Of a stretch of 64,000 nucleotides of DNA, positions 32,985 through 56,240 are shown piece by piece; positions within the stretch are counted from its first letter, which is position 1; every line of letters begins with the position of its first letter. The stretch is from contig JAUZTB010000087.1 of the NCBI GenBank assembly GCA_034780895.1, positions 30,095,374-30,159,373 on the forward strand, given 5' to 3'. Under the pieces are notes generated by a model. The model saw nothing but the letters and a program-made list of their open reading frames with translations. It ran no database searches and was not told the origin of the DNA. The position numbers and the translations under genes were made by a program. Source of the stretch: Rhynchobatus australiae. Its lineage: Eukaryota.

Positions 32985-33240
32985 TACTGAAATCAAAACA
33001 GAAATGCTGGAAAGATTCAGCAGGTCAAAAAATATCTCAACAAGGAGAAACTAAATAAATCTTCTTTGAAATTGAAAATAGGTGGAGATGAAACATTTTA
33101 AACAAGTAAAGAGAGGGGAAAGTTGGGGGGGTGTAATAAAGTACAAAAGGGGCTATTACAGTGTATAAAACTGATCATATTAAATGATAAAAGAAGTGAT
33201 GTCTTTCAGCCAAAGGGATGCTAAAAATGGTAAGAAATAA
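32985..33240 (-). mobile_element. Penelope-like terminus remnant
   Basis: 'aaaacagaaatgctggaaagattcagcaggtca' is the reverse complement of the terminus at 53040-53085. Confidence 0.55.
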
Positions 33241-33249
33241 GAGTGCTCT

Positions 33250-36200
33250 TATCACTTTCACACGGAACGGAAACCCTAAACATTATCCAAAAGGGAATTA
33301 GTTTGGATCATTTAAAAGTGATACCTTTTACGATGCAGGTTTCCAGCTAAAACAATATGAACGGATTAAAGGCTTACTACTAATCGTAGGTACTAGAATA
33401 TTGATTCATTAGACTCTTTATTGGTTGTTAAATGACTGCCTATAACCGATGTTANNNNNNNNNNNNNNNNNNNNNNNNNNNNNNNNNNNNNNNNNNNNNN
33501 NNNNNNNNNNNNNNNNNNNNNNNNNNNNNNNNNNNNNNNNNNNNNNNNNNNNNNATAACCGATGTTATTCTCAGTTACAAAGAAAATCTAAATACTTTGT
33601 TACCAGTGCAAGTTCAAAGAGCTGCCGTTATCTCATGCATTCTACGTCTCCCCACCACACCCCTCCCTTCATTTGGTTCCCTCTCTGTTCGGGGCAGTCA
33701 TGTCGTCCTTGAAAGTTCTCGAACAAACGTTAATGCAGAATCAGTACAAATATATCAACTGCAGTGAAATCAAACTTTATAATGTAAACGCAATTACGTG
33801 CGGACAATTCACGTGTCAGATTGGAGTGTTGAAGGTTCCAGGACNNNNNNNNNNCTGTCCCCAGGTTGAGCTGACATCTCCAATTCAAAGTAATTGGCGA
33901 AGTATCTCCAGTTTTCTCGCAACGGTAACACATCAACCCGAGAACAGTGCTGCATAACACGAGTGTCAAAATGAACGGAAAGGAACTCTTACCGAAGCGC
34001 ATTGCTCTCTCGCTTCTGACTATCATAGATTGAGCATACGTTATTTTGCTACAGTCAACGTGTATCCCTCCTATGCTTGCAGAAATTATTAAGGCATTCC
34101 ACCTCTGTCACCGTTTATGATTAGTCTTCCCGTTTTTTGTTTAAGGCCGTTAGCGAGTTTTTTTTTTGTACCTTACACTTGTAGCGAGCTTTGCATACTA
34201 TTGGTTGCGGAGAGTCCGATCTGCTTTTGGATGGGAGGCATGGACTGGTCATAAATGTTGCAATCTTCTCCAGCAGGAAGGGCGCTAAACTAAGTGAACC
34301 AGTGCACATGGAGTGGTATAATGGAGAAAAAGTAGATAATACAAATTAGCTAACGAAACAAAACATTCAAATCTTGCAACGATGAGTAAAATAATGCAAT
34401 ACATAAAATATATATTCTAACATTTACCAAATCAAGTTAACATTCAAAAGTGGAAGGACGTAGGAAAGCAAAATTACACTGTGAATTAGACTTTATACGT
34501 GCATTTTATATTCCTGTAAAGTTGTATTATAATTATCAACAATAATAATTCTGCTATACAAGAACATTTTGGTATTCGAGGTTAGCAAACGTTTTTAATA
34601 GTAATCACTGATGGTTAATCTTTAAAACTGCTGACAAGGATTCTTGCTCTTCACTAGATTAACAATGCCAGCTAAAGTGATAGCTCAGATATTTGAGAAA
34701 TAAACAGTTTGTAGATGTTCAGCACCATCAATTTTGATTCATCCTTCGCATTTTAGTGTCCTATTGATACCGCCGGAGGTCCTCAAAAGTGACCGGTAAC
34801 TGAACATGTACATCATTAGTTATTGATTTCAATCAAAAGCTAATTCTTTTACATAGCCGACTGCAAGTAATGCAATATATAAAGGTAAATATGTCTACGG
34901 TGGTTGATTACGGGTGATAATAAATTCAAACCTTCAGGAGACCCTACAGCTGAACCCGAAGTGCCCGCCAGTTTTACAGAACAGACCGAATTCGGTGTGT
35001 GGGTCAGCTCCCGACTCCCCAAGAATCGCTGCAGTCCTCGTTAGCTCTGAGCAGGTTTTGGATGACGGGTTGAAAAGGCTTGGTCCGGATATATTTAGTT
35101 TATCATTGAGTAGTCTGGAGAAGAGGGTGCTCCTCCGAATCCCTCAAAAAAAAATCTGGGCTACCACCAATGCCTTCATTTCCATCCTTAACTATCTTTA
35201 CGGCGACAAAAAAAGCCACTGTTATAATCCTTGATTCACCAAAACGTCAGAGCTCCCCGTCAGAAGTAAATGAGACCGAGCAGCAAAATTATGGCCATCT
35301 CTGCCGCGACAGAAAGCGGCCGGAAAATAATTGTGCGTTCCGATGATTCACTATCGCCAATTTAGTAGGAATACAGCTTGTTATACTTGCACCGAACGAT
35401 TTCTTTATGCAAAACACACGGGTTAAAGCAACCCGGTTCCCATTTTGGGGTGAATGTCCATGTTATATATTAATTTTAGAACAACAAATCCCTGGCGGAC
35501 CCCAATTTAGTGAACAGTTTAGATAACCTAATAGAAATCCCACGATGCTGCCTGATGCAATGTTAAATGCAGCTCCTTTCTCTTAAATACAGATGAAATG
35601 TATGAAAGTACACGTTTCCTTTGGTGAGGGGGAAACCCTTTGGCAAACTGGTTACTTTAATAGATTTTCTAGTTATCGCCCAGTTACATATACCATTCCG
35701 AAATCTGCGAATAATTTAACCTTTTTTTGATGGATGAGATAAACAACAGCGTGTTCATTCAGAATACCCGCTCATGTGTGACTCTTTCACTACCAAGTAT
35801 TTTCCTGCGCTGGCGTTTTATTTGTATCTCCTCCCACCCCACCCCGCTATCCCCAATTTCAATTTAACATACTGCAGCATTCCTGACGAGCCATCTATCC
35901 CTTGACACAGTAACAAAAAAAATATGTTATACCTTCTACGGTATTTAATGTGCCTTGGTATACATAGACAAATAATTAAAGTTGAGGTTGTGTTGTTCCC
36001 ATTGATTTGTACTGCATAGGAATTTTATAGTTATTCCTTACTAAAGCATTTACCGTAAGATCACAAGTCATTGTAACGCTGCAAGCTTCTTGTTCATGGG
36101 GCATAAAATAACCGATATTGTTTGAATCGAAAGTAGCAAAATAAACTCTAAAATCGACATTAACAGCCTGTCTTGGATCAAAATCACGCTCAATTACATC

Positions 36201-38000
36201 ATATTTAAATGGAACAGAATTAAAATGATACCGAGGTTGAAGACCAAACAGACATTTAAAATAAAAATCCGTTTTTTGTTTTCCCCGGCTTATCGACATG
36301 GTTCTTTGAAGCTGCGGTCCAGCTTCGTCTAATTTCAGGACGTTATGCAATTCCCAGCGGCCGAATGTATGGCCGCTCACAGGTGCCGAGGCCGGAGCCG
36401 CTGCCGCCCCCGCTGCCCTGCTCTCGGGGGCCGGGCTCTCTGTCCGAGCCGCAATGTGACCAGGCTCGGCTAGCGCCCGCTCATTACCACTATTGCACTG
36501 AGTGAAAAACAAAAAATATCCACAAGATGGAGTCAAGCGAGGAAAAGAGATTCAAAATGGACAAAAATTGGCTGAAAAAAATGATCGTAAGCACTTGGGC
36601 CAGTCTGGGTTTACAGCTCAGCACGGGTCTACCTCCTTCCTTGTGTTGTAGGATTGTGACCTAAAATGACCAGGAATACTGTTCCTCGCGGGATGGACAG
36701 ATTTTGTGAACACCGATTTCATTTATAGTTGTCATTTTATTTGTCCGAAACCGTACGTAATCNNNNNNNNNNNNNNNNNNNNNNNNNNNNNNNNNNNNNN
36801 NNNNNNNNNNNNNNNNNNNNNNNNNNNNNNNNNNNNNNNNNNNNNNNNNNNNNNNNNNNNNNCCAGCACCGCTGGACTTGAAAGATTAGTGGCACCAGCA
36901 ACAGCGGGTTGAAAGGATATTCACAGTCACTTTAAAAGCGGATTTACCTGCAAAACAAACGTTTATGCTACGTTGAAAACATCGCGCAATTCTGTAAACC
37001 ACAGTCTGCATAAAACTTACGTCTGTTACTTTTGTTCTCGAATGCATTCGAGCAACGTCGATTGACAAGAGCGGTTTTCAGATCCGTTTAAATTCCCAGT
37101 CAGGTCTAACGTTAATTTTGGAGCAGCGTCATAATATCGTTGTTGCGAAAGGAACATCCTGGGTTGCAAATGGTTAAAGTGTAACCTTCATTGGTAAATT
37201 ATTTTCATTTCATTCCGGGTTCTTCATTTTAAGGAGAGTTTAGAAACCTTGGCTACGATTCAGTCGATGCTCATATCGTATGGATTTGGTTGTAAACAAA
37301 GTCTTTCGCACGTCAGATTTGTAATGAATGATTGGGCAACATCTGATTGAAAAGGTAGAAATACAAAGGATAAAAATAAACTCTGGCACATAAAACCCCA
37401 GGTATATTTTGCAGCGTAGTGCGAATCAGAGAGCTTGGACGTTTAAAAGGTGGTATTCTCCAACGGAAACATCCTTGGAAGTACATGACATGTCAAATAT
37501 GCGTCTTTGGGTCACATGGCATGTGTAGATGCTCCANNNNNNNNNNNNNNNNNNNNNNNNNNNNNNNNNNNNNNNNNNNNNNNNNNNNNNNNNNNNNNNN
37601 NNNNNNNNNNNNNNNNNNNNNNNNNNNNNNNNNNNNAGATGCTCCAGCTTTCATGAAACTTTGGTCTTAGTTCAGTACCTCTATTTGCGATTTCGCGTCA
37701 GGAGCTACTCGATAAGAAATTCCAAGAAGCAGCCCAAAGAAAACCAACGACCGAACGGCGCGCCAGGTGTTAACAGCGGGAACCGGAGGCGAAAGGAACT
37801 AATTTTTACATTGAAATCGCATTGATTAGTAACAGTAATTCTGGCGATTCTCAAATTTCGGCTGCTAGAACTTCACTTGTCAAGATCAGTTCACAAACTG
37901 AGCTGAACTAAACTGAGAAATCACATAAAGAGCAATGGGTTCAGTCTATAGGCTACTTTTCACAGGGCGCATCAGACGCAGCGCATATATTCCTAAACAG
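33250..38000. promoter_or_regulatory. CpG-retaining, repeat-poor domain (likely germline-hypomethylated)
   Basis: CG dinucleotides are visibly frequent despite AT-rich composition, unlike the flanks; no recognisable transposon inside. Confidence 0.6.
36345..36490. promoter_or_regulatory. Small GC-rich CpG-island core
   Basis: 'gccgaggccggagccgctgccgcccccgctgccctgctctcgggggccggg' is the most GC-rich stretch in the window. Confidence 0.65.
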
Positions 38001-38244
38001 TCTCCTGGCTTGGGCTCAAAGGTCACAATGATCACAAGATGATAGAAATGACAAGACTCTGGGGAGGTCTTGTGGATGTGCTGTGATCTCTACTTTGCCA
38101 TCTCATTCTTCTTAGACAACTTTGTTTAAAACATCGAAAAAGAGATATTTTGTATTTTAAATTATGTTATCAACATTACCTTAATAACTGTGGCAGTAAA
38201 GCATACCATAACATAATGACGTTCAGTCCAAGAATGTAATTCTG

Positions 38245-38930
38245 TCTAGAAAAGTGTGAAGTAATGCACCTTGTGAAGGCAAGAAATTGCGTGTAAAATA
38301 GATTCTTTAAAGCACAGAGAAAACTTTTACATTTCTATAGATCCCTGAAGGCACAAGATAGATTAGATAAGGCGGTTAAGAAGGTACATAACATACTTGC
38401 CTTTTGTGAACAAGGTTTAGAATACAAATTAGGGGAGGCCATGTTAGAACTGTATTAAACACTAAGTAGGCCACAGCCACAGTGCTGTGAACAGTCTAGT
38501 TAGCACACCACAGGAAGTATGTGAAAGCACCAGAGAGGGTGCAGAGAAGATCTGAAGATGTTGCTAGGATTTGAGATTTATATTTAGATGAGGGAGATTG
38601 CAAAGCTGAACTTATTTTCTTTAGAACAAAGGAAAGAATTTAAAATAAATGGTAGAATTTTGAGAGGTCTGGACAGTGAACAGAAATGATCTGTTTTACT
38701 TAGCAGAAAAGACAATAACTAGGGAGCTTAGAGTTAAATTAAATGGTAGAAGAATGCAAGGGGGATTTAAAAAAACTCAATCAGTAGTGGGGTCTGAACT
38801 TACTCCTTGAAAAAAGTGGTGAGACAGAAACCCTCACTGCGTGGATGAGCATTTGCTATGGAACAAGAGATGGGAGGTGGTATTAACCTAAAGTCCATAT
38901 TGATCAGAATGGTCTCTGTGCTATGAATCT
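38245..38930 (+). mobile_element. Decayed CR1 LINE 3' part
   Basis: 'aagtgtgaagtaatgcac' (KCEVMH) and 'gagagggtgcagagaaga' (ERVQRR) motifs. Confidence 0.8.
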
Positions 38931-39600
38931 CTCGGAAGAACATTCCTTCTCTCTTCCCCTTTGATTCTTCTAGCTCAACTCCTTTGTTATATGTTCCTCA
39001 TTCCATCACAATTAAGTCCTCACATTTCACTCACCCCTTTGTTCTTGTGCTCCTCTCTTGCTTCCATTGGGAATGCTTCCATTTATCCCTTTGCTCTGTT
39101 GTTGTGCCTGGATCTTCAGGAAATACTGCTCACAAGCACCCAACCCCATTCTCCTGTCTTCCTTTTTCTATTGGATCTATTTATGGGGAATGAACCAGAG
39201 CAGGTAAGAGCAGTAAAGTAAAACATCTAGCTAAGTGTGTATAATACAGTTCTTTGAGAATAATTGATAAGGACATAAGTATGACAAAGACCAGATTGGA
39301 AAAAGTTTCATTTGAAGAGTTTAGAATAGATTATGTAAAATAAACAAAAATATTGACAAACAATGTAAAACAGCAATGGGAAACTTTTCAAATAGTGTTC
39401 ATAGATTTTTTAAAAAATTCTGTTGATAAACAAGAACAAACCAGTGGGAGACAAAGAATGAAGAAAAGCACAAGGGTTAAACAATGTAAATTAAAGATCA
39501 AACACCAAGTAGATGGACAACATGGATCAGTATGGCAAGAGAGAAGTGATAAAAAAAAGGTATCAACAGGAACTATAAAATTAAAATATTAAGGAACATA

Positions 39601-39992
39601 AGGGAACAGTAACATAATAGTTAAGTTACTGGTCTAACAGCCAGAATTCTGGACTGTTGATCCAGTGACACGAGTTCAAACCCCACCGCAACAGCTGGGG
39701 CATTTAAATTCACGTAAATAAATAAAATCTGGAATTTAGATAAGTTAGTTCAGTAATAGTAACCATAAAACTATTGGATTGTCATAAAACAAAGCCACCT
39801 GGTTCACTCATGTTCTTCAGGAAGGAAATCCGCTGTTCTTTTTCACCTTTATGAGACCAGACCCACCCACATGGTTGGCTTCTGTCTCTTCATTTTAGGG
39901 GGCACTAAGGGGTGGACAATAAATGCCACAAGGACTGTGTGTGTGGCTCAAACATTTTCAACTGTCAGTGATATCCACAACCCATGAATAAA
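39601..39992 (+). mobile_element. tRNA-derived SINE with a probable target-site duplication
   Basis: B-box-like 'gagttcaaaccc'; tail 'ggtggacaataaatgcc...cccatgaataaa'; TAAGGAACA repeated at 39590 and 39993. Confidence 0.8.
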
Positions 39993-41380
39993 TAAGGAAC
40001 AAAAAAATTAAAGTATTTTATAGCATCAAAAGAAAAAGAGCCACAAAGAGGCAGTCAGGATAAAATCAAGCAGTGATGGAGAAAAGACAAAAATATTAAA
40101 TTATTCCTTTAGTATTTACCAGGGAGTTAAGTCAGATGGATATGATGCAAAGCACATATAAAATAATGAGAAGAAATATTAAACAACTAATCAAATTCAG
40201 AGGATAAACCCTGAGTCTGGGTGGATTATTTACTTTAATTTTAAAAGAATACAGGGATGAATGGACATTAATTCATCAGAAAATAGGAAGTACCAGGGGA
40301 CCTTACTTCTCCATTACATTTGATGGCATGAATATTGCCAGATACACATTGCAAGGGAGTCAATATATACCAGAGACTTAATTGGACCAGTCACATAAAA
40401 TAGATAGCTACGGGAATAGATCAGAGGCTGCTTATTCTGTACCAAGTCACTCACCTCCAAATTTCTCTCAGCTTTTCCATTATGTACAAAGCAAAGACAG
40501 GAGTATGATAGAATACTCTCCAATAGCTTTGGTGAAAAGATTAAAGAGCAAACTTCAGACAGGATCTTGTAAGGGCTCTGTCTAATTGAAACAATATTTT
40601 ATCCTTTTTGTATTTTTTAAATGACGACCATCCTTGTAGTCTTTGGATTATTTTATATCCATGCCCTAGATTTTAGTAATTTATATACCTAGATATTTAA
40701 ATTCCATTGCTCTCCCTAATGTGTCAGAATCTTTTTAACTCATGCTCCAGCTTAATGCTTTTGAGCTGTAGTGACTCAAGATATAAAAGTTTCTCAAGTT
40801 TAATCAAGATCAGTCCACAAATCCTCATATTCTACAGTCCTAACACACTACCCAGGCTGCCATTATCTGCTCTATACTTATTTTATGGTCGTTATTTACC
40901 TCAATTTTTATCAGAGTAATATAATCTCGCTTTCATTTGTTATGACATTTTAGTACACTTACCTGTTGTATTTACATAAAACTGAACTTTCTTTTGGGCT
41001 TGCACTTTGTACTCAGTTTAAAAAAATTAGTCACCTCAATCTCTTATTCCTCAGATTTGACCAATGCAGAGAAAGGAGCAGATATGGTATAACTTTTCAG
41101 ATTCTTCACTATATTTGTTTCAGTTCTGCCATCACTTTGATATGCTGTGATCTTTTTAAGTAGCCTTACAGGGTATGTTCAGACCTGTCATGCATTTGCT
41201 GAATTTTGCAGTTATTATGTCCAGGATAAAATATGGCAATAGAGGAGATTGAGATGATAAAACCATTATAGTTATAATAGTAATTGTCTGCACTAAAGAT
41301 GATTTTTAAAAAAAAGTCACAACGTGAAATTAATATTATGGAGACTTAAATAGAAGGCAGAATCAGCATCAGGTACTTAC

Positions 41381-41438
41381 CTGTAGTGCCAGAACCAGGG
41401 CGAAGAGCCCCCACTTTTTGACAAAGAAATTATTTTTG
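41381..41438 (-). ncRNA. Candidate 58-nt exon of a minus-strand spliced transcript (lncRNA or micropeptide)
   Basis: Acceptor 'gcattttcctgtag|' and consensus donor 'CAG|gtaagt'; open in frame with the 44918-45020 exon. Confidence 0.6.
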
Positions 41439-44239
41439 CTACAGGAAAATGCAATCACATTTAAATCATTTGTTAAATATAACTTTATTATTTTTAGCAG
41501 TTATCATTTGCAATATATTTTAATAATCTTTCTCAGTACTGTCCACTGTTTTGTGGATTTTCCACCCCCGCACCACCCCTCCCAATAATGATCCCAACTC
41601 TCCCCATCCAACTTTTAGATCCTGCCACTTTTGGTGCTTGCAAATCAGATTAGATTGGTGATATAGCTGTTTTTAATGTGCATACATTTAGTATATGCCT
41701 GATTATCATGTAAAATATTAAAAATGCACAGCATATTTTTATAAAACTGTGCTAAATGCTTTGAGGTCACATACCTTAGGAAGTATTCATCTCTCAAGAT
41801 CATTCCTTCTAACACGTAGACCCCATGTCAGGTGGTGTCTGAATGAATCTGAGAGAGTCTGGTTCAAAAAAAACTAGATGCAGATGTGACTAGTAAACCC
41901 TTTCAACCACACGCATTACTTTTACTACAAAATGCTTTATATGTAAGTATAGGTATACCATGTAAATATTTAGTTAAGAAATGACTACCACTGTTCTGTA
42001 GGAAATTCGAGTCTCTCTTTTTAAATGAGATTTGGAACTTGGCATGAAATCAGTCAAACACATTCCAGTGATATTTGTAAACTTTTGTCCAGCAGCTGTA
42101 GGCAATACTTTCGACATCATCAATGATTTGTGCAAGATGTGCTAGACTGGCCACTAACATCCATCTAAACAGTGGTTGGATGCTGCTTGCACTGTAAAGC
42201 TAGTTGTTGGGAGTTGGGTTTCCAGGCTTGAGCAATTATTCTGTTCATCAGCCTCCTAGTGTTCTAGAGTGCCAAAGTTAGACATTTCTACTCTTGTTAC
42301 ACATCAAGGAAGGGAAGGGCACAAAACAGTCAAACAACAAACAAGCTTTTCATTAGCAAACAAACAAAATAGCCCAAAATGCACAATCCACACAAATAGG
42401 AGTACTAAGTGCCAAAGTTGTAAGATTTAAGGCAGAGAGCAACAGATTTTTAGATATTGAGGGAATCAAGGGGTATGAGGTGAGTGAACGAAAGTGATGT
42501 TGAGCAGGAACAGTGAAAAAATTGCAGCTAATCAATTCAAGAACACACATTTAATACACAAAAAAGAATTNNNNNNNNNNNNNNNNNNNNNNNNNNNNNN
42601 NNNNNNNNNNNNNNNNNNNNNNNNNNNNNNNNNNNNNNNNNNNNNNNNNNNNNNNNNNNNNNNNNNNNNNCAAAATTATATTTAGTTCTATGAAAATTTA
42701 ATGGATTCAGCTACATTAATCATGTAGGATATTTTCTAAGTACAGTGAGGTTTCTAGGCTGTAAGTTTAATTTTTGTTAAAACAATCAATCTGTTTTTCC
42801 TCATACAAAGAACGAACATTTTTTTTCTTATTGCACTATATATCAAATGAAAAGTTTCTGAAAATGTTCCACAAATCTAAATTGTAGCAGTGACAAAAAT
42901 AAAAGCAGGAATAATAAGTCATTTAGTCTGCATTTTTTCCCAAAGACTTTGATTCAAGAACACTAAGCAATCTTTTGAGTCTTTCACATACAATTATCGA
43001 GTTAAACATCCTCCTCCAGAGTATAGACTGAAACAGCTGCTTCACTGTAAGCTTAATGTAAGTTACTGCAGTAACATAAACTTATGGCAGGAAGTGCTGA
43101 CCCATGTATTTGCCAGGATAGTCAAACAGAAACATTTATTTTTTTCCGAGAAGAGGAAAAGAAATAAGAGTATTGATGCTACAAGCAAAAGGATTAACCT
43201 TTTGAGTACTGAATTTCATGCCACTTTTCATTTGGCTCTGCTTCCCATCACCCAATATCTATAAGGCCATCAGTCGCTTGAACAGTCAGAAATCTGAAGA
43301 CTAACAACAATGAAAGAAAGGCTATAAAACTTCCTACAATAGGACAATTAAATGACAGATTGGGCGCACCGCCAAATCATACTTTTTTTCCAAGATTTAG
43401 AAGAAACTTAAATCTGGCCTAGAACACGCAAATGCTCCTAACAAAGTCTCACACATTTGGCTTACTTTAAACAAAACTGCCCCATTGCTTGACTGTCACT
43501 GAACCATGCTGTAATGCACAGTTCTTAAAAAAAGATATTGCACCTGCAAACAGAAACAAACAAATCTATTGCACAGTGGTAAATGACCTCACCAAGGTAC
43601 TTGGAATATGCCTTAAAAATCCCTATACATTACCATCATTGTATAACATTGTACAGACATTTACACTCAATAAACAAAATAAGCATAATTTGGCCTGTGA
43701 TTCAGTCTAAGGAATTTTATAATAAGCAATGCACTTAATACATAATCAATAGAAAGCTGTCCTAAATTTTCAAAATGCTGAATTTATAATTGTACTTTAA
43801 ATTTTAATTTGAAAATACATGATTCTTAATAAACAAAAGAGAAAAATATGAGAGCCAACAGTGTGGTGCAAAGTGTTGTTTCAATGAACATTTCTTCAAA
43901 AGTGTCCCTAATTTACTGGCTGGGGTCTAACTTTGCACACACTTAACAAAAAGTAATAACTTCTCTTCAAAAAAAAATCAGAATTGTAACTTTTAAGACT
44001 GCAGTATCCCTCTTTGCTGCCCTGCATCTGTTCAATTTCAATATCATTAAATGTCACCTTTGCTCTACAAAGAGCTTAATTTTGCTTTCTTGAACTTGCA
44101 ATAAGTACTTGGTTTTGCACACTCTATTACAAGTACCTGGACATTTAGAATACACCCACTTGTTTCACTATTTCAAACACACAGGCAATATTCTGAGAAT
44201 TTATAATTTCCCATCTTTTGCTCTCTTCTATAAAATTCA

Positions 44240-44480
44240 CTAAGTCACCTGGGTCATACACTGGCCCTATCTGAGGTCAATGCATGGTTTGCTCCAGGAA
44301 CCACTGCTTTGCCATTGGCTAAGTCCTGGGATATACATGGCCTTACTTGCCTTTCCTCTCTATCCGGAAACCCCAGGTCTCTGCTGCCCTCCTTGCTATA
44401 GGGCAGCTGAGATAAGAGGTTCAGCCAGATGGGACTGGAACCTTTGAGTCACAAATGTGAAGATACAAATACTGGTGCAC
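44240..44480 (-). mobile_element. Possible ancient tRNA-derived SINE remnant
   Basis: Minus strand 'aaggttccagtccc...tatctcagctgccc' resembles a B-box and LF-SINE-like body; higher GC than the flanks. Confidence 0.3.
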
Positions 44481-44917
44481 CAGTGTACTGTGCTACTTCA
44501 CTGCAGAGCAAACTAATTATTAAACAAAAAGTTGTTTTTTTCATATAAAAAATAAATTATAAATGTAAATGAAATAAAGAATATCCTGAGTACCAAACAT
44601 TAAGGGGTTAAAATTTCTTCTGTGAAAACTTTCCTTTAACAGAAATCCAGTCTTCTTACAGTACTCTGAACAGATGTTTTACATTTAATTCTCTGAAGAG
44701 GATGGCAGCCATGTTTATATCGAGCAGTGTGGGAAAATACAAGTAGTTTAACATTTCCAAATCCACTGTACTCAAAGTACTAGAAAATACTGAGGTGGGA
44801 ACTGACTCTTTTGATTTATACCAAATAGTAAAGTCTTGATGCTGGACAACAAGAAGAGATAATGCAGCTTCACTTTTGATATGCATGTGTAGATTTTAGA
44901 AATATTTAAAGTATTAC

Positions 44918-45020
44918 CTTTGCCAAGCAATTCCCAATGTATCGTCACTGGCACTGGGGTATAAATGCCTGCCGTTTTGATTCATGGTCCAGTCACAAAT
45001 CCTCAGCTGTCAATTGAAAC
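44918..45020 (-). ncRNA. Candidate 103-nt exon of the same transcript; contains ACC-ATG at 44985
   Basis: Acceptor 'ctcactgatag|' (weak pyrimidine tract), donor 'AAG|gtaata'; ATG opens MNQNGRHLYPSASDDTLGIAWQ. Confidence 0.6.
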
Positions 45021-46247
45021 CTATCAGTGAGATTGGGTGTCGAGCAGAACTAGACTCCAAGAATACATGCAAAAAATTCACTTCCATTAAGAAAGGCATT
45101 AGTCTGATTAAGATGCAACACAGATTTCAATCAAGAAATATTAGAAAGTCAACCACATTGGTTCAACATTCCAGACAGACAGACAGAGTAAAGGTTAACA
45201 AGAGAAAATGTTCATTTAGTTTGCTTTAAGGAACCATTTAAGTAGCTGGAACTGGCAATTCATTTCTTCCAGTCCAGAAACCCTTTGTGTGGAGCTGTGA
45301 AGTACTGACGTAGGAACCTACACTGATCTTGGATGGCTTTACAGCAGATCCCTCCAGAAATTCTGCTTAGGAGAAATATTTGGGATCATTAATATTCTTG
45401 TGATTAAAATTCATGATTTTTCTGTGAAAGCAGAATCTTCATCAGAATTTTAAGGAAACTTGATTCACTATGAAGTTCTCTACTGAAAATTCAAGTATAT
45501 TTCGATACACAGAGCACATTAAGTGATTCATTTTAGTGTTGTATACGTTTTCAANNNNNNNNNNGTAGATCAACAAAGGAGAGAGTACTTTTATCCAAAT
45601 TTATTTGGAGATAAAGAGCTAAAATTAAACATTCAGTGGTAATTATACATCTAAACACTATGATTTAATATTGATTTGTTTGTATTTTTTAAAATAATAA
45701 TTTCACAATGAAAGATTACAACCAAATCAGCACGATATGCTTATTTTTTTGGATAACATCATTCGTAAAATCTTCCACACATTTGTAAGGGAGTTGATTT
45801 GGTTCAATGATTTTTTGTATCTACTTTCAGTAATATTGCCATGTATAATAATTTGGTGCAAGATGCCAATCAATTTTGAAACATTTATAGATTGATCATA
45901 TCTTTTATTAAACTTAGCTGCAAGTCAAAAAGGTTAAAATATGATTTTTCATCAAATTTACTTTCATTTTGATTCTCATCTCTCAGAGCTGCCCTATAGA
46001 TCCTGAGTCAGGTTGGTAAAATTATATTATATATAAATTTTACTCCTATGGCAGTATCTGTGGGCACATATGTACAAATCTGTTTTTAAATTATACATAA
46101 TTTTTAAATGTTTGACAATCATATTTGTATATTAAAAATCTTGTGCATAGGGATATTCATTTTGTGTGTCACATTTACATTAGAATTGTTTGCATAACAT
46201 TTTGCAATGAGAGCTGTAATGGATTTCATTAAGATCTCAATACTTAC

Positions 46248-46370
46248 CTGCAACACTAAATTGTAATTATCTGGTATGTCACCAGGAGACACTACCTTTT
46301 CCCTACTTTCTTGGGAAACTGAAGAATTTGTCCATTGCTTTCTATTCTCAGTAACTCAAACCTATAATGT
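46248..46370 (-). ncRNA. Candidate 123-nt non-coding exon
   Basis: Acceptor 'ttttattttgcatatttcag|' and consensus donor 'CAG|gtaagt'; stop codons in all three frames. Confidence 0.4.
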
Positions 46371-48839
46371 CTGAAATATGCAAAATAAAATTATTTACTT
46401 ACATGTTTTCTAATAATGAGCAAGTATTCAACTTAAATTTTCTTTAAATAAAAACATTTATTAAAGATATTCAAAAGCATTAGCTCTCCTAAAATCCTGC
46501 AGTTTAACAAATTTTATTTCCAGAACCATGACTCTGTCATTAAAGACATACCAGGCTGTCTGATAGTATGTCCAATTTTCCAGGTTGCACTGGCAGCATT
46601 TAAGTCAGGTGAGCCACTGAGACATCCTTCAACATCTACCAACGTCTTGTCAATTGTTTTTCAACATCATTTCAAGAAACATTGGATGATGGAGTGACTT
46701 TTTTTAATTGACAAGAAATGTGCTTCTATGGGAGAGAAATAATAACAAACTATTGTTTACACGACAGTTACAGATTCTTCCTTGCATGTTCAGAAAGTAG
46801 ATCAGCCACCTGGGCTCAAAATTGTTGTTTGCCAAATTTGGTTTTACACAGCAGCAGGTTGAACATCTACCCATATTATCTTTCCTCATCCTAATATGAA
46901 TTGATTTTAAAATAGCTAAATATTAATGCAAATGGAATTACCAATATTATCACTTGACTTTNNNNNNNNNNAGAAACTGCAAACACAATAAGCATTAAAT
47001 GCTGTCATGTAAGGAGGAGATTTTCTCAATTAAATTTGAGTTCTATCAAATGAAAAACATTAAAACTTTAAAATACCAATAGTTATCACCAAAATTTGAT
47101 GAATGATTTGAACATTTACATTTTCTAACAGCAATTAATTAGAAACATAATTAAAAGTTTAGAAACATAATTATAAGTTAAACAGGCACAGAGACACACT
47201 TGTAAAAGATTCATAAAACACTACATTTTATGTCTGCATTAATCTTTTAAAATTTGAAAAATAGTGCTATTACATAAAGCATTCAATAGTACTGTCAGGT
47301 GGACACCAAGAATGACTTCCAAAACTTGTATCCACCTCAAGACGTGCCAGATATTAGGTTAGCCTTCCACAGTTCTACAAACTTGGCTGTCCTGTATATT
47401 TACCCTGGTCCCACCAAACACAAAGCCCCATTTTAATAATAACAATTTTCAGTATCTCCAACTAAGCTTCACCAAACACCACGCCACTTCCTAATACTAC
47501 ATTCTCCAATACTTTCAAAGTGCATTAAATTAATCACATTCTGAAATAAAAATGAAAATGATGAAATCACTGAACCAAGTCATGAAGCATCAGTGGAAAA
47601 AGGAAATAATATTGGATGCTAATTCAGCCTCAGGCCTGAAATATTAACCTTTTTTCTTCTTTTCTGTTCTGAGCATGCACAGCATTTGCTAAATGCAGAA
47701 ACGTCCAAGAAATATAACTCAACAATTGGGTGTTTCCAAATGTCCAATATCAACCTACAACTGGTGCCATTGTGAGCTGTGTATTCTCAAGTTTGAAACA
47801 TTTAAAGATATAAATTAAATGCTATTATAATAAAGGAAATCCATTTATGATTTTCATAGAATAGTGAACAATGTTCCGGAGAGCTTTGGAGTTTAATCAT
47901 CAATACACGAGTAAAGATCGCTATCAATAATGTTTTAAAGATATCATTTGTTTCAGTCACTTGTCAGCTTTGATGGGTTTATTCCCATTACCAATTAAAG
48001 CAGAATATAAAGGAAACACACATCTTAGTACATTTTATAAGAGTATACCTAATGATATAAACTGATTGTAAAAATCAAACCTCATCTCTATCTCTTTTAA
48101 ATTGGCATTCAAATTGTTTTTGATATTACTAGTTTTTTAAAGCAAGTCCTATACAGTCCTCATTTTGCTCAATTATATTGAATTGCGGTATTGCTACAAC
48201 ATGTAATCTTTAACCCATTTTGTAGTTTTTCATTTTTTTGAATAATGTATTTTAAAATGGCCAAACTTGTATTCAGGGCCAAGTTTAGTATTACTTTCCC
48301 CTTAAGAGTATAAGGCGCTTTAGACATCTTAATCATACAATAAAGGTTGTGCAAAATTGGAGATTAAAATCTGAAATTATGTAAGTATTCACCATTGGTC
48401 ATATATTACTTCTCACCACTCTTATAATAAGGTTATATGTAAATCAAGGGCCAGGGCAATGTGCATTAAAGATTGTTTAAATTATCTGACCTTACAAATA
48501 GGTACAAAATCATAAAAATTCAGATGTCAGCACTTAAAGGTATCATTCAATACGTCTACACAAGCCAAATGTGAAACTAATTGCACTATCCCACTTTCTC
48601 CCTATAGCCTTACACATTCCTCCATCTCAAATATTTACTTAATTTCCCTTAAAAACAAAGGTTTCTGTCTCAGTGACTTGCTTTACCAAAGTGCGGTCAC
48701 TCCTAAAACCCTTAGAACAAAGACATTTCTCCTCTCTACTCTCATAGTGGTAACAAAATTGGCAATTGCTCAGCACTAGATCCTTACAAGTAAGTGACCT
48801 TAATCCTTTTGTTCAATCAATNNNNNNNNNNNNNNNGAG

Positions 48840-49030
48840 AACTATCAAGTAAAATCTGACAATGAGCTACATTAGGGGATATTAGACGCATAACCAATAA
48901 TTTGTCAAAGAGGCAGGTTTTAGGTGGTACCTTGAAAGCAGGAGAGAGTTGAGAGGCTGCAAACTTTTGGGGTGATACTTCAGTGGAGAGATTAAACTGG
49001 AGGATCAAGTGGCCAGAAACTGACACAGTA
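48840..49030 (-). mobile_element. L2-type LINE 3' fragment
   Basis: 'PAFKVPPKTCLFDK' resembles the L2 C-terminal FK.LLKT.LF motif. Confidence 0.6.
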
Positions 49031-50304
49031 CAACATCATAATTTTTAAAAGCTTGATCAACTTTCAACATACTTTGCTCCAACTGTATTTCACAGTTCTT
49101 ATGTCGTAACTATGTTTCTGAAGAATTAATGCTGAATTGATACTCAAAGTTTAATAACTTTCTATAATTAGGTCGAACAAAACTGCACCTGGCATTCTGT
49201 GGCCTAAACCGGTATTGTCCAATACATGAATCACTCCTCACCTGTGGCTAATTGGGAATCCCACATGCGACTGCACTTTTGATTGTATGCTTTCCTTCAC
49301 TGGTTACTATTTATTTGTTACCTGCCGAAATAAGGTTTAACACAGGTAAACATACCAGACTTCAGAATCATGGAACTAGCAGCAACTTTATACGAGAACC
49401 AAACTATGATTACAGTCAGCTCAGGAGATCGGAATTATCGGCAGAACTCAGTAAAAGCTAAGGTCAACCAAAAGGCAAGTGGCATATAACAGCGTGCATG
49501 GGCGAGTCATCACGTTTAGCAACATAACCGAGGGCATCAAAGCACCGCTTTAAAGCGCAGTGCAAACGTCTCGAAGCCGCTACGAAAAAAGGCTTTAAGC
49601 AAACGAGTTCGCGTCAGAATTCCTGACTTGGTGTAAAAAAAACTGTCAAGTTTTGTTGGATGGCTGTCTATTTGTAAATATAGACACGTAGTATGTGTTA
49701 TTGATAAGTCATTTTCTTGCACAACTAGAGCACGCGCTAAACTAATGTAGCTGTTATTACCGATTTAAATCGGACAACACCGACCCTATCGATGCCTCCG
49801 AAAATACTCAGCGCAGTAACATGTGAATGTTCATTAACGATGTAAAATCAACTAATTTGCGGCATTAGAACTATCTGTCCGTTGCTTCACTGGATCGTGC
49901 ATTCAGGAGGGAACACGAACAGAAGGAATCACAGGCGCCAAACAGTTACAGCCAATCGGCAACTCAACGATCTTGTATTTCCATAAATACGTTATTTATA
50001 ATCAAAAGATGATTATCTTTTATAGCTTTTTCTATTAGCACCCGGACTCCAGGGGAGCTATAGATTTGATTCCCTAAATTTCTTCATCCATCTCTTTTCT
50101 TTGGATGCATCTTTTCATTGTATCGTTGCTCCAAAAACACATTTACCACCCGACTGCCCACTCTTGAGTTTCCACATTCCAGGCGACTCTAACATTCGTC
50201 ATCGGTGCTGCCAAGCCTGGGTCATCACATTTCAAGGTTGTGCTCCTTGTACCAAAGCAAGAGTGAGACACGCACCCGAAATATTTTGAACAGGCCTGAT
50301 CTCA

Positions 50305-50745
50305 CTACCTTTAGGAGATTATACTCGGAATAGAGCGGGTACAGCGAAGGTTCACCAAATTGTTTCTCGGGATGGCGGGATTAATGGTTTGAAAAGAGAG
50401 ATTAAGTAAGCTGGGTCTGTACTATCTGGAGTTTAGAAATATGAGAGACCTTATGAAAATGCACAAAGACTTGTGGGGCTTGAGACGACAGATGCAGAGT
50501 TGATATTTCCCTGGGCTAGAATCAGGGGTGGGTTGTGGAAACGGCGATTCAGGACAAATATGGGAAGAAAATTCTTTACCCAGAGAACAATGACTTTAAA
50601 ATTTACTCTCCAAAAAGGCTGCCAGGTCTCAATCATTCAGCATATTGATACAAATTTCGTTACAAATAGAATCATAGGTTGGATGCAGGAAGCAGTGCTG
50701 AATTAAAACATCAGCCATGAATGGCGTACACCTACTTTTATTTTT
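50305..50745 (+). mobile_element. Decayed CR1 3' fragment
   Basis: 'gagcgggtacagcgaaggttcacc' (ERVQRRFT) and 'RFRTNMGRKFFTQR'. Confidence 0.8.
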
Positions 50746-51659
50746 TTCTGCTCTTCTCCATCAATTAAACTAGACCGGGCACTGATCCTTTCGGGCAGAA
50801 CTTCGGTCAGAACTTACGCCATTTTCAAACTGCGGTTGTATTCACGTTAATACACACCGACAGGAGCGCCATCCATAAAGCTGCATTGCCAATACACAAT
50901 TTTTCTGAATCACTAAGAAATCCCACATTTCGTCTGCCTTATTTGCTGAATTTCCTTTTAGAATCCACACCGTAATTTTTCTAACCAACATTTCACGAGA
51001 CGCCTTTCTAAAAATCCGTCTACTAGATTTCGTTTACTTATTCATAAAATCTAAATAGCACCTTTTCCTATTAGCATGAATTTACATTATGCAATTTTAA
51101 GTTCAGATTCATAATATTTTATTCCCTCAAATTCGATAATTTGTGCATCTTTGTCGTGTATATATGTTTTGCTCTCTGAATTATGTTTGGCGAGTTTCCC
51201 ACTGATGTTTCAATTAACTTGGGTCGGACAGATCCCCTCTTCCCAAAGAATTTTTCCTCTTTCTTGTCCCCATTATATGAATCATGATCTGACTCGTAGT
51301 CGCTTTTTTTTCGGTAGTAGCTTTTTCTCACCATCCCGTTCAATTTACTCCCGGAGAGTTAAAAATAATTCCAAAACCTGCTATTGATGACGAAATTATT
51401 TTCTTTTTACCACTACTTTAGTTCGAAACCTACTTCAGCTAGAGGCGGTTCATGGTTTTATGAAATAATCCATTGCTTTCTCAGCGGTGAAACGAAAAGC
51501 CGCCATAAATTCAAACAGCATAAACAAAAAGACACACTGAAGATGTCAAAATAATATGGTTAAGGACAATAGTTGGGGGAGAGCTGTACAGTAATCAGAT
51601 ATAGCCCAGACATGAAGAATGATCCTTGCTCGCTTCTGAGAGGGCATTTCCGTCTAACC

Positions 51660-53087
51660 AGTGAATGAAAATAAAAAAATCCTTGCTAACTGCCGGCTTA
51701 ACATCGACCGTCTTGACTTTTCCACTCCCCTCTCGTGCTCTAACCTACCCTCTTCTGAACTTGCAGCTCTCCATTCACTAAGAATCAACCTTGCAATAGC
51801 CATCAAACCCACTAACATGGTCTGGCAAACTGACCTCTATCTCACAAAGGGCAGGCGTAAGCTCTCAGACACCTCCTCATACATCCTTTTGGATCTGGAC
51901 CTCTCAAATGGAAGATCAGGCCATGGTCTTCCAGACAGTCACTGACCTCAGGAAACCTTCGCTTCACAGCTTGCAGACTTGTGGTGTCCCAATCCTGCAC
52001 AGCCCGCTTCTATCTCCTGTCCAAATTCCACAAGCAAGACTGCCCTGGCAGATTCGTTGTCTCCGTTGTATTTGCTCTAATAAAGACACTTTCCGTACAG
52101 GTGCCACTGAAATGTCTTCCCTCTTCCTGAGCCATGGCTTCGCCTCTACCATTGTTAACAAAGCCCTTGATCATATTCTCGTCCATTTCCTGTGCCTCTG
52201 CTCTCCTCCAAAACAAGGTTAGAATTCCCTGGTCATCTCTTTCCACCCCGCCAGCCTCCACATTCAACAGATCAATCTCCACAATGTCTATCACCTTCAA
52301 AGAGCCTCTTATCATCGGACACATCTTTCCTCTCCTCTCAGCATTTCACAGCAACTGTTCCCTTTATGACTCCCTGGTCCATTCTCCCATTCCCATTAAC
52401 AATCCCCTCCCCCACCTTCTTACAGCACTTTCTCTTATAACCACGGGCGATGAAACACTTGCCCTTTCACCTTTTCCCTTCCCACCACCCAGGGATCCAA
52501 ACAGTCTTTCCAGGTGAAGAAGCGATTCACTTGCACTTCTTCAATCTAGTGTACAACATCTGGTGTTCACGGTATGGTCTCCTCTACGTTGGAGAAACCA
52601 AATGAAGATTGGGTGACCATTTTGCATCTGGTTAAGTCCTGAGCTTCCGCTTGTCTATCAAGTTAATTCTCCATCTCACTTCCACTCTGCCTGTTGGTCT
52701 GTGTCCACCTACATTGTTACAGCGGCCAAAAGCAAGCTTGAGGAATGACACCCCACCTTCCATCTGCACATGTGGCAACCTCTGAACTCAGTTCTACAAC
52801 TTCAGTTAACTTGATTTTTTTTCTGTCTGTGTCAGTCGTCTATCTGTGTTATTAATTCAGCTGGTTTGTTTGTTTATTTCTTTTTCTCTCCGGGGGTGGA
52901 GGACATGCCCATCCTGACCTGCTGGATATGTCTTCCTGCTCGGCATTTCACAACTCCTAACTTCTTTCGTCGGCTCCTTCCCAGTTCTAACCAAATGTCT
53001 TCCACCTGAAATGTTAACTCTGTTTCTCTTCCCACAGATGTGGTCTGACCTACTGTGTATTTCCAGCATTTTCTGTTTTTATTTCAG
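51660..53087 (+). mobile_element. Penelope-like retroelement, internally deleted
   Basis: 'IDRLDFSTPLSCSNL.SSELAALHSLR..IAIKP..VWQTDLY'; GIY-YIG remnant FQVKKRFTCTS..VYNIWCSRYGLLYVGETK at 52508-52625; terminus at 52980-53087. Confidence 0.85.
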
Positions 53088-54699
53088 TTTAACAACAACG
53101 TTGATGAAAAGTTGCGCGCTGAGCATCAGTTTCCCCCACACACACTTAAGGGTCCAGTAATGGTTACGGAGGCTGTTGAGAGCCCTTCATTAAAAAAAAA
53201 ACAACTTTCTTAAAAACTCAATGAATCCGTCCCCACATCGCAGCAATACTTTGCAGTAAATACTGTTTCAAACGATAGTCGGAATTTAGCACGCTCTTTT
53301 TTAAAAGGCGGAGGGTGAAGAAATAAATAAACTTTACTGGGCATCATCCCTGTTTCCCTTCCAATCCCTGACTAAAAGTCACGGGGAATAGTTGTTCCTT
53401 TACAAATGATCAGCACCGAGAGAATAGTCGCAGAGCAGCCTGATCTTCCCTTCAGTCAAACGAAGACCCAGAAATCAGTTCTCTGAAATCCGTTGTTCAA
53501 CATTCTTGTATCAACTGCTAAACTCCGTGCGTATCACTGCAGCGGGGGAAACGTCNNNNNNNNNNGTCAGGGTAGGTTACAGAGTTAGCCAAACATCGCA
53601 ACGACTCCGTGTAACACTGGAGGATTCTGGAGATCTATGGGTTGCCAACCAAGTTGTAGGGTTGTATTCGGACAGTCGCTGCCAGCCGGTGAATCATTTT
53701 AGATTGCTTGTGCATTTTAGTTATAAGCAACGGAATTAGAAGCAGGATTTTCCCCATCACATTTAGTTCCTTGAATTGAACGATTGCAGGTTATATTCTT
53801 ATATTCTGTTTACTTTTGATCGGCGCGTACAGAGGTTACCCAACTTGGTGATTACGTTTAAAACCACGATCTACAGAAATAAACTATAGTAGATGATTGT
53901 GATTTGTAGCTCGTAAGAAGATGTGCACAGTCCCAGACAAATTGAATTTCTCGTTGGTTTCCACCCGTTCATAATACAGTTGGGGAGCTCGGACATTCGT
54001 TCTGTGCGGGCCAATCATGGCTCTTCCGATTGTTCTCAAACCGACCGCTCGGCTTCTTTCTGTGTCCTGAATTTCTCCTCACAAGCGATCAGACGAAGTG
54101 CAGATTTTATCGACTACTCTGTTCGCAAAATAACCTGATTTCCTCACGTTTTTTGATTCTCAAACATGTAATTAAAAAACGTGGCTGTTCAGTTTGAAAG
54201 AGAGCGCCCGGCACGACCCCCGGGAGCCCACCAGTGCTCTGATCACTACCATCCTGTCGCTCTGAAGGCATCGGCAACTTTTTCTGAATCCATGTCAAAA
54301 GGCAGAAAGCAAAGAGCAGTAATGATCGGATCCAAGAAACTAGCTACTCAAACCGGTGTGCATGATGTACAATTCCTTCAAACTTTCGAACACAACGTAT
54401 TCAATTGCTGTTGATTTTTTCTTACACGATACGTTAAATGATCATAAACGTCCCCCCAAAACTCTAGAAATTGAAAAGAAAAACTGCTAAACTTTGTACT
54501 TTCCAGTAACATCCACGTTAAAGCAAGATTTAGAGGAGAAACATTATCGGTTATCGCCAGAAGTTACCGAATCCATAAAGAGTTACCAGCCCCGTCTGTT
54601 TACATTAGCGTGCTTTCAACAGAAACATGCGTTGGGCTGCCACTACCGTCCCCATCCCCCATTAGGAAGCCTTGAAGCTCTGCGCTTCTTTCTGCAACA

Positions 54700-56240
54700 A
54701 AGATCCAATTAGTTCCCCTCCAGCAACACTCTCATCTGCCTGGCAGAACTCGTTCTTATCCAGAACAACTCTTTTATTCCTCGCACTTCCAACAATTCAA
54801 AGATGCCTGTCTCTTTCCTGGTACCACTCCCCAATGCAGCGACAACTGTACTGGTACCGTGGAACTCGCCAATTTTTATCATCTTTGCTACTAACTTCCA
54901 CCCCTCTCTCGTATTCACAGACCATTCTGGACGCGTCTTCCTTTTCTGGATCTCTCTGTCTTCTTCTCAGGTGAGCTACATTGACTACAATGCCATCCCT
55001 TTCTCCAGGTTTCTCTGTCTCTGCCACATCTGAAAATGTGGCTTCCCTTCCACTGCAGTTGATAGAGCCTGCTCTCCTATTTCCTCAGTTCCCCGTACTT
55101 CTGCCCCCACCCCACTCCCTCCAAAAGACAGTTCCCCAGTCCTCGTCTTTCACTCTACCCAGTACATCATTTTCGCTAGCTGCAACAGGATCCCGCTACT
55201 AGCCACAAGTTCCTCTCTTCAACTCTTTCTACGTTCCACAGGGACCACTCTCTCTGTTACGCCCTTGTCCACTAATCCCTCCCCACCAACCTTTACTTGA
55301 CCCCTGGAAATTTCCCCTGCAACCTTAGATGTTCCTACATCTCCTCTCTCACCACCATCCAGGGATCGAAACAGCCTTCCAGATGAGGCAAAGATGCATG
55401 TGCACCTCCTCTACTGCATTTGGTGCTCCTGATGTGACAGCCTCTACATCAGCAAGACCAAGTGCAGACTAGGCAACTGGTGTGCAGAGAACCAGCTCTC
55501 TGTCCACAATGGTCATGCTGAGCTCCCAGTTGCATGCCATTTCAACTCCCCATTCCCACACCAACCTGCCCATCCTCAATCTTCTCCACTGCCAAAGTGA
55601 GGCCAAATGCAAACTAAAAGAATAATGCATCATATTCTGCCTAGGTAGTCCACAACCCAATGGTATGAACATTTGAATTTTCCAATTTCAGGTGACTCTT
55701 ACGTCCTTGTGTTTTTTCTCAACCCCCCCCCCCTTGCAATCTAGCTTTGTTCCTCCCATTTTTGCTCCCTCTACGTACTACCCATACACTTCACCCACCG
55801 GACCCCCCCCCCCACCAAATCTGGTTCCACCTGCCCTTCATCTCTCCCTNNNNNNNNNNNNNNNNNNNNNNNNNNNNNNNNNNNNNNNNNTATCACCCTC
55901 CAGCCTTTGTCTTCACCTTCCCCTTCCCCACCTGGTTCTATCTGTTTCCTTTTTGTTTTTTTTTCCTCGTCTGCTTCCACCTATCACCCACCTGTCTTCC
56001 AACCTCACCCCTCCCCCTCCTTCACTTGGCTCCTTCTACCTATCATCCTTCACCCCATCTCAGTCCACCTCAGTTATCTCTGCCTTGGTCCCACCCCTCC
56101 CCCTCTCCTCTTTAAAGCAGCTATCTTCCCTCTACACTCAGTCCCGATGCAAGGTCTCGAATCAAAGTTGACAATTCCTTTTCCCCACCACAGATGCTGC
56201 TGGAGCCAGAGAGTTCCTCCAGCAGTTTGTTTTTGCTGTC
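54700..56240 (+). mobile_element. Penelope-like retroelement (RT and GIY-YIG remnants, pyrimidine-rich spacer, terminus)
   Basis: 'FIIFATNFHPSLVFT' RT motif; GIY-YIG remnant at 55377-55480; terminus 'cagtcccgatgcaaggtctcga...cacagatgctgct...gagttcctccagcag'. Confidence 0.85.

Follow-up and report, generated by a model that had tools for sequence, protein, structure and literature searches.

Three described systems bear on the locus reported here. pTUNAR is encoded by a 48-codon ORF conserved across vertebrates, is backed by PhyloCSF and by ribosome footprints, and is predicted to contain a transmembrane domain (PMC8758570). DANCR-type positionally conserved lncRNAs combine small exons, a CpG-island start, the lack of a long ORF and fixed neighbours; DANCR itself hosts small RNAs, and both its expression and its function have been shown (PMC12694859). 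In human 5q31 the gene order is NRG2-PURA-IGIP-CYSTM1-PFDN1, and IGIP alone is placed between PURA and CYSTM1 (PMC4650292).

The locus lies in 64,000 nucleotides of Rhynchobatus australiae DNA (contig JAUZTB010000087.1, positions 30,095,374 to 30,159,373 of the forward strand), called the window below and numbered from its first letter. A preliminary description had noticed two minus-strand exons that join into an open frame, and had proposed a small-exon lncRNA that may encode a secreted or membrane micropeptide. The locus resembles pTUNAR (PMC8758570) in that its ORF is shorter than 100 codons, is hydrophobic toward its 3' end and would belong to a spliced transcript that escapes ORF callers, and it resembles the DANCR type (PMC12694859) in its small exons, its predicted CpG-island start, the lack of a long ORF in the modelled exons and its fixed neighbours. 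It differs from pTUNAR in that the hydrophobic run has roughly half the length of a helix and from DANCR in that Rfam finds no hosted RNA, and both the transcript and the ORF are predicted here from the sequence. A search of mainly openly accessible literature found no description of the transcript.

The locus probably produces a real but ordinary unannotated spliced RNA. We put at roughly even the chance that this is an unannotated multi-exon minus-strand lncRNA which starts in a CpG island at 49-55 kb, contains exons 1 and 2 of the pair as internal exons and carries the 42-codon frame as a passenger. Such a lncRNA would be one more unannotated spliced transcript adjoining the dosage-sensitive neurodevelopmental gene PURA, of modest value and mainly a candidate cis-regulatory locus; should the ORF turn out to be conserved and also translated, this well-studied vertebrate interval would gain a new microprotein that has no known relatives.

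The genes around the locus are arranged as in human 5q31 (PMC4650292), in the order NRG2, PURA, the exon cluster described below, a PARM1-like gene, CYSTM1 and PFDN1. The single-exon PURA gene (PurA family, E 5e-107) lies 44 kb upstream of the locus on the same strand, with neuregulin beyond it, and the plus-strand PARM1-like gene, CYSTM1 and prefoldin follow downstream. When 101 of 169 flank ORFs were compared with Pfam, PurA was the sole family past the cut-off. The PURA-CYSTM1 interval holds the PARM1-like gene and the exon cluster here, whereas for the human interval only IGIP is listed. No IGIP-like frame was found downstream of PURA (window-equivalent 64-88 kb) with short motifs or with Pfam on ORFs of at least 50 residues, both of them weak tests.

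The PARM1-like gene would encode a type I membrane mucin and is situated on the same contig at about 30055700-30087904 (+), 7-40 kb to the left of the window. One of its exons is rich in Ser/Thr, another codes for the transmembrane part, and the tail is of the PARM1 type; PARM is matched more strongly on a second contig (C64). The gene is missing from the human PURA-CYSTM1 gene list given in PMC4650292.

The exon pair, its proposed junction and a conserved block

The two proposed exons are as follows.

Exon 1, 44918..45020, minus strand: 103 nt; ATG at 44985; ORF codons 1-22; acceptor 5.1, donor 6.3.
Exon 2, 41381..41438, minus strand: 58 nt; acceptor 7.9, donor CAG/GTAAGT 13.0; carries the hydrophobic run.

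Exon 1 (45020-44918) has AG/GT ends, contains ACC-ATG at 44985 and ends in phase 2; exon 2 (41438-41381), also with canonical splice dinucleotides, completes the interrupted codon and ends in phase 0. The joined frame measures 42 codons and is still open, and a second frame lacking an ATG is likewise open across the junction. The coordinates, splice dinucleotides, phases and 42-codon frame of the preliminary description were thereby reproduced, but the junction itself keeps the standing of a candidate. Without splicing, the ORF frame of exon 1 stops after 23 codons. Each of the three frames contains a stop within exon 1, before or at the ATG, as had been stated in order to set the ORF apart from any larger protein. 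That reason is incomplete, since exon 1 also contains a weak in-frame inner acceptor (2.0 vs 5.1) whose use would leave the frame open at its 5' end.

Splice sites were scored with a simple matrix built from generic vertebrate frequencies. Among the sites on the minus strand of the window, exon 2 ranks 3 of 3470 GT for its donor and 74 of 4233 AG for its acceptor, and it is the best exon candidate at the locus, better than chance. Exon 1 has moderate sites (donor 178 of 3470, acceptor 300 of 4233). GC content is 46% in exon 1 and 35/32% in its flanks, a 12-point step, and 45% in exon 2 against 32/29%. At the DNA level, exon 1 and its flanks are single-copy in the genome. When both exons were shuffled 5000 times with dinucleotides preserved, an ATG frame of at least 42 codons open to the end was obtained in 15.5% of the shuffles, so the length of the ORF is not remarkable; two open frames in exon 2 arose in 62%.

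The 44918/41438 junction was looked for in three sequencing runs, none known as RNA, compared over 34501-44944, an interval that contains exon 2 and, of exon 1, only its 3' end; no spliced record was found among the 15 of 20 joints listed. Among the runs listed, six contain sequence of 41200-45300, none of them recorded as RNA, which has no bearing on whether the locus is expressed. The same runs delimit a conserved block within the proposed intron, which also includes a gap and another candidate exon.

Conserved non-coding block, at least 42671..44944, no strand: seen in runs X4 and X1; inside the proposed intron.
Assembly gap of 100 N, 42571..42670, no strand: inside the proposed intron; may hide exons.
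Further candidate exon in the proposed intron, 43466..43543, minus strand: 78 nt; acceptor 12.3, donor 7.4; stops in all three frames.

Run X4 differs from the window at 2.7% of 42671-43532 vs 5.4% of 37668-42472 (Fisher p 0.0003). Run X1, the most distant of the three, differs at 33 of 538 bases over 44407-44944; one of its contigs crosses the exon 1 donor unbroken and extends 511 bases into the intron at 94% identity, a second aligns from 44678, and four pieces over 42981-43833 match at 88-95%. Taken together, X1 and X4 show that what is conserved extends over 2.3 kb or more and is not exon 1 alone. Such a block (42.7-45 kb) would fit an enhancer or a long untranslated exon. X1 coverage is absent over exon 2, which is uninformative because neutral divergence there probably falls under the 85% limit. 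The depth of X1 is 3-6 here from 241 million letters assembled vs 1685 million for X3 at similar depth, suggesting that X1 may be an enriched library.

These data bear on the reading, which we regard as unlikely, that exon 1 is not spliced to exon 2 at all, either because it is one portion of conserved non-coding sequence (that of an enhancer, or of a long terminal exon beginning here and reaching to about 42.7 kb) or because other exons intervene, so that the 42-codon frame would exist on paper only. The moderate sites of exon 1 are consistent with it, as are the acceptor-donor pairs that reach the thresholds of exon 1 between exon c (see below) and exon 2: there are eight, exon 1 counted, and the other seven are as good. 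The continuation of conservation past the donor points the same way and would demonstrate read-through of the donor if X1 were RNA; however, X1 as RNA is only a guess, and as DNA it is silent on splicing. X4 contigs continue past the edges of the gap by 1.6 kb and 3.3 kb, so the gap hides at least 1.6 kb in the X4 organism and more exons may lie between exons 1 and 2, in addition to the candidate with the 12.3 acceptor. Poly(A) hexamers occur at 43140, 42771, 42702 and 42555, but such hexamers are found everywhere in the AT-rich DNA here. In favour of a spliced exon 1 are its GC step and its position between exons with consensus donors.

Further candidate minus-strand exons and two CpG islands

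The proposal of a small-exon lncRNA gained support and can be broadened, as at least five further candidate exons were recognised on the same strand.

Candidate CpG-island promoter of the minus-strand transcript, 49000..55000, no strand: promoter role predicted.
Candidate exon a, 49242..49321, minus strand: 80 nt, if not just the 3' part of a longer first exon; acceptor 6.9, donor CAG/GTGAGG 12.3.
Candidate exon b, 46552..46725, minus strand: 174 nt; acceptor 9.5, donor 8.0; stops 3/4/2 by frame.
Candidate exon c, 46248..46370, minus strand: 123 nt; donor CAG/GTAAGT 13.0; stops 2/2/5 by frame.
Candidate exon f, 40963..41011, minus strand: about 49 nt; donor CAG/GTAAGT 13.0; acceptor uncertain; polar in the ORF frame.
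Candidate exon g, 40455..40577, minus strand: about 123 nt; donor GAG/GTGAGT 12.0; acceptor weak, 3.5.

The exact donor CAG/GTAAGT occurs four times on the minus strand of 264 kb and not once on the plus strand, and three of the four copies lie within 5.3 kb (46248, 41381 and 40963). From base composition, the probability of two more such donors within 10 kb of exon 2 is 6e-4; a looser permutation test on matrix-scored donors gave p 0.042 only. Other strong donors are located at 49242 and 40455. GC content reaches 37% in exon c vs 21/26% in its flanks, and exons c, 1 and 2 exceed their flanks by 11-16 points. Only exons c and 2 are individually firm. Exon-like pairs at the level of exon 1 are found at 11-14 per 10 kb on either strand, and since pairs as good as exon 1 are so frequent, none of exons a, b, 1, f and g is certain by itself. 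The cluster as a whole presents one mark of a multi-exon intergenic lncRNA, a group of exons that share a strand and are bounded by canonical splice sites, with uncertain boundaries for a, f and g.

The exon cluster begins at the edge of the 49-55 kb island, where the CpG observed/expected ratio is 0.66-0.97 in five of six 1-kb bins and 0.41 in the sixth, compared with about 0.15 elsewhere. From this arrangement we infer that RNA polymerase II would start in the island on the minus strand, that about seven small exons (a, b, c, 1, 2, f and g) would be spliced, and that the transcript would head toward a second island at 33-38 kb. Its function, if any, would most likely be exerted in cis, through transcription and splicing across the conserved 42.7-45 kb block, which may act as an enhancer of PURA or of genes nearby.

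No coding exon could be recognised in the second CpG island (window 33000-38000). At about 36570-36380 it has a GC-rich stretch with a plausible minus-strand donor at its end, and an X1 contig matches part of that stretch (36478-36573). The stretch is possibly a further promoter or first exon. A 191-codon stop-free frame (35976-36551, minus strand) spans this island; it gave no Pfam match and is probably non-coding. Within the upper CpG island, the stretch 53456-54970 has two plus-strand donors, one at 53571 and one at 54970, a hint of divergent transcription toward the 3' end of PURA.

Coding potential of the 42-codon frame

The claim that the ORF is not a piece of a larger protein holds in substance, since every upstream exon is interrupted by stops whichever frame is read, with at least two stops per frame in exons a, b and c. 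Exon a also contains an upstream ATG, which is in frame with ATG 44985 (model positions 56 and 413), and the lengths of exon b (174 nt) and exon c (123 nt) are divisible by three, which keeps the frame of exon a. Together with the weak in-frame inner acceptor of exon 1, this regularity would suit a unitary pseudogene, in which the exons are the remains of a longer protein-coding gene and ATG 44985 was once an internal methionine. Such an origin is very unlikely. Stop codons are not depleted in the exon cluster: the frame from the exon a ATG to the exon 1 ATG has eight stops in 119 codons vs 7.3 in shuffles, and the minimum number of stops, summed over the best frames of the seven exons, is 7 vs 6.4. 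Exon b showed no credible homologue, no paralogue and no Pfam family below E 0.15, and a C2 domain read over exons c-1-2-f scored -0.6 to -1.6 bits vs 17-29 for four of four held-out half domains. Neither protein homology nor residual stop depletion, the two marks of a unitary pseudogene, was found, the protein searches covering the frames of exons 2 and b.

With the lncRNA reading, translation of the frame would be poor. The a-b-c-1 model places eight upstream ATGs ahead of 44985, so little peptide would be made by scanning ribosomes that meet up to eight of them first; in the form with exon a joined straight to exon 1, one upstream ATG and ORF is left. If exon f follows exon 2, the ORF runs through polar residues to a stop in exon g at 65 codons; if exon f is skipped, it is open to 83 codons through exon g, which contributes 41 open codons in the ORF frame (p 0.04 for exon g). 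These 65-83 codons are modelled from the predicted next exons only, and the 3' end lies beyond the model. As a rule, a stop upstream of a further donor triggers nonsense-mediated decay, and with exon f included the stop in exon g would occupy such a position, making decay of the transcript likely.

The ORF is ATG-initiated and below 100 codons, the size of a microprotein, provided the junction is real. That it represents a genuine gene for a small protein, with a 5' UTR spread over several exons, a start at 44985, a product of 65-83 or more residues and a hydrophobic patch serving as a late signal peptide or membrane-binding segment, seems improbable to us. In favour of it, the start reads ACC-ATG and so has a purine at -3, and the leader could be as simple as the a-1 form with its single upstream ORF. 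The open codons of exon g argue for a protein when exon f is skipped, but the codon model scores exon g as non-coding, and an open frame of 42 codons is common among the shuffles.

The hydrophobic patch was examined against the same shuffles. Among those having an ORF of at least 30 codons, 2% contained a 10-mer as hydrophobic (p ~0.02), and 0.4% did so jointly with the length, a post hoc figure. The run comprises only 10-11 residues and begins at residue 32, which is late for a signal peptide. The best 19-residue Kyte-Doolittle mean is 1.16 when exon f is next and 1.38 when exon g is next, below the value of 1.6 that is usual for a membrane helix; a full transmembrane segment was therefore not found with either predicted next exon, a result that an unseen exon could alter. 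The proposed secreted or membrane micropeptide did not gain support from these features, as the run is short and late, does not reach a membrane helix with either predicted next exon and lies in an exon whose frame gave no homologue in the databases searched.

A codon model was trained on 43 ORFs of the same genome (18,935 codons, GPCR and cadherin only). At orders 2 and 3 the ORF frame outscored 91-92% of non-coding open frames, and at order 4 it outscored 70%, so that 30% score higher in the last case; the model fails to split short true exons from background. The score of the ORF frame falls within the range of true neighbouring exons, the true NRG2 exons being no better, and two of the three codon models rank it over the alternative frame.

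A micropeptide is possible, its support not extending past an open reading frame of a kind that chance often gives. It appears decidedly doubtful that the PURA-CYSTM1 interval of cartilaginous fishes contains an overlooked small-protein gene whose leader, spread over several exons and rich in upstream ORFs, gates a secreted or membrane-binding peptide of 65-83 or more residues that has no known relative.

Homology searches and rejected candidates

Protein-database queries of the ORF consisted of the exon 2 half in its genomic frame. No match was obtained among annotated proteins of 23-76 or 77-2000 residues, both weak negatives, or in PDB, and no paralogue was found in the own genome, where the best non-self match had E 0.1 and three stops. 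Exon b, read through its stops with X, yielded two candidates and no credible homologue; five HMMER matches were rejected as repeat-summed artefacts involving unrelated proteins. The stop-free part of exon b had no metagenome relative among 598 pattern matches. Pfam was applied to 328 of the 607 window ORFs of at least 40 residues, namely the longer ones and those near the locus, and none passed the cut-off.

Rfam gave no hit at gathering score in the window; when E values up to 1 were allowed, 33000-44940 and 45035-56000 together produced a single match, put down to chance. A snoRNA or miRNA host gene was rejected, as Rfam finds no intronic small RNA. Selenocysteine read-through was discarded because one exon has TAG/TAA stops too in the frame. 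The reading of candidate exon 43543-43466 as a duplicate of exon 2 was rejected, because 26% of 29587 decoys scored equally well.

A CD59-like match at 33856-34107 (minus strand, E 0.0055) stayed below the cut-off and is about what chance gives in 140 tries. The frame there starts like a signal peptide and goes on to a Ly6/CD59-like first motif with no more of the cysteine pattern, and it adjoins a 10-N gap. A 33-base exact copy of the exon b donor region is present on another contig (C76, 1500-1533 of a piece) beside an assembly gap and is likely an assembly artefact.
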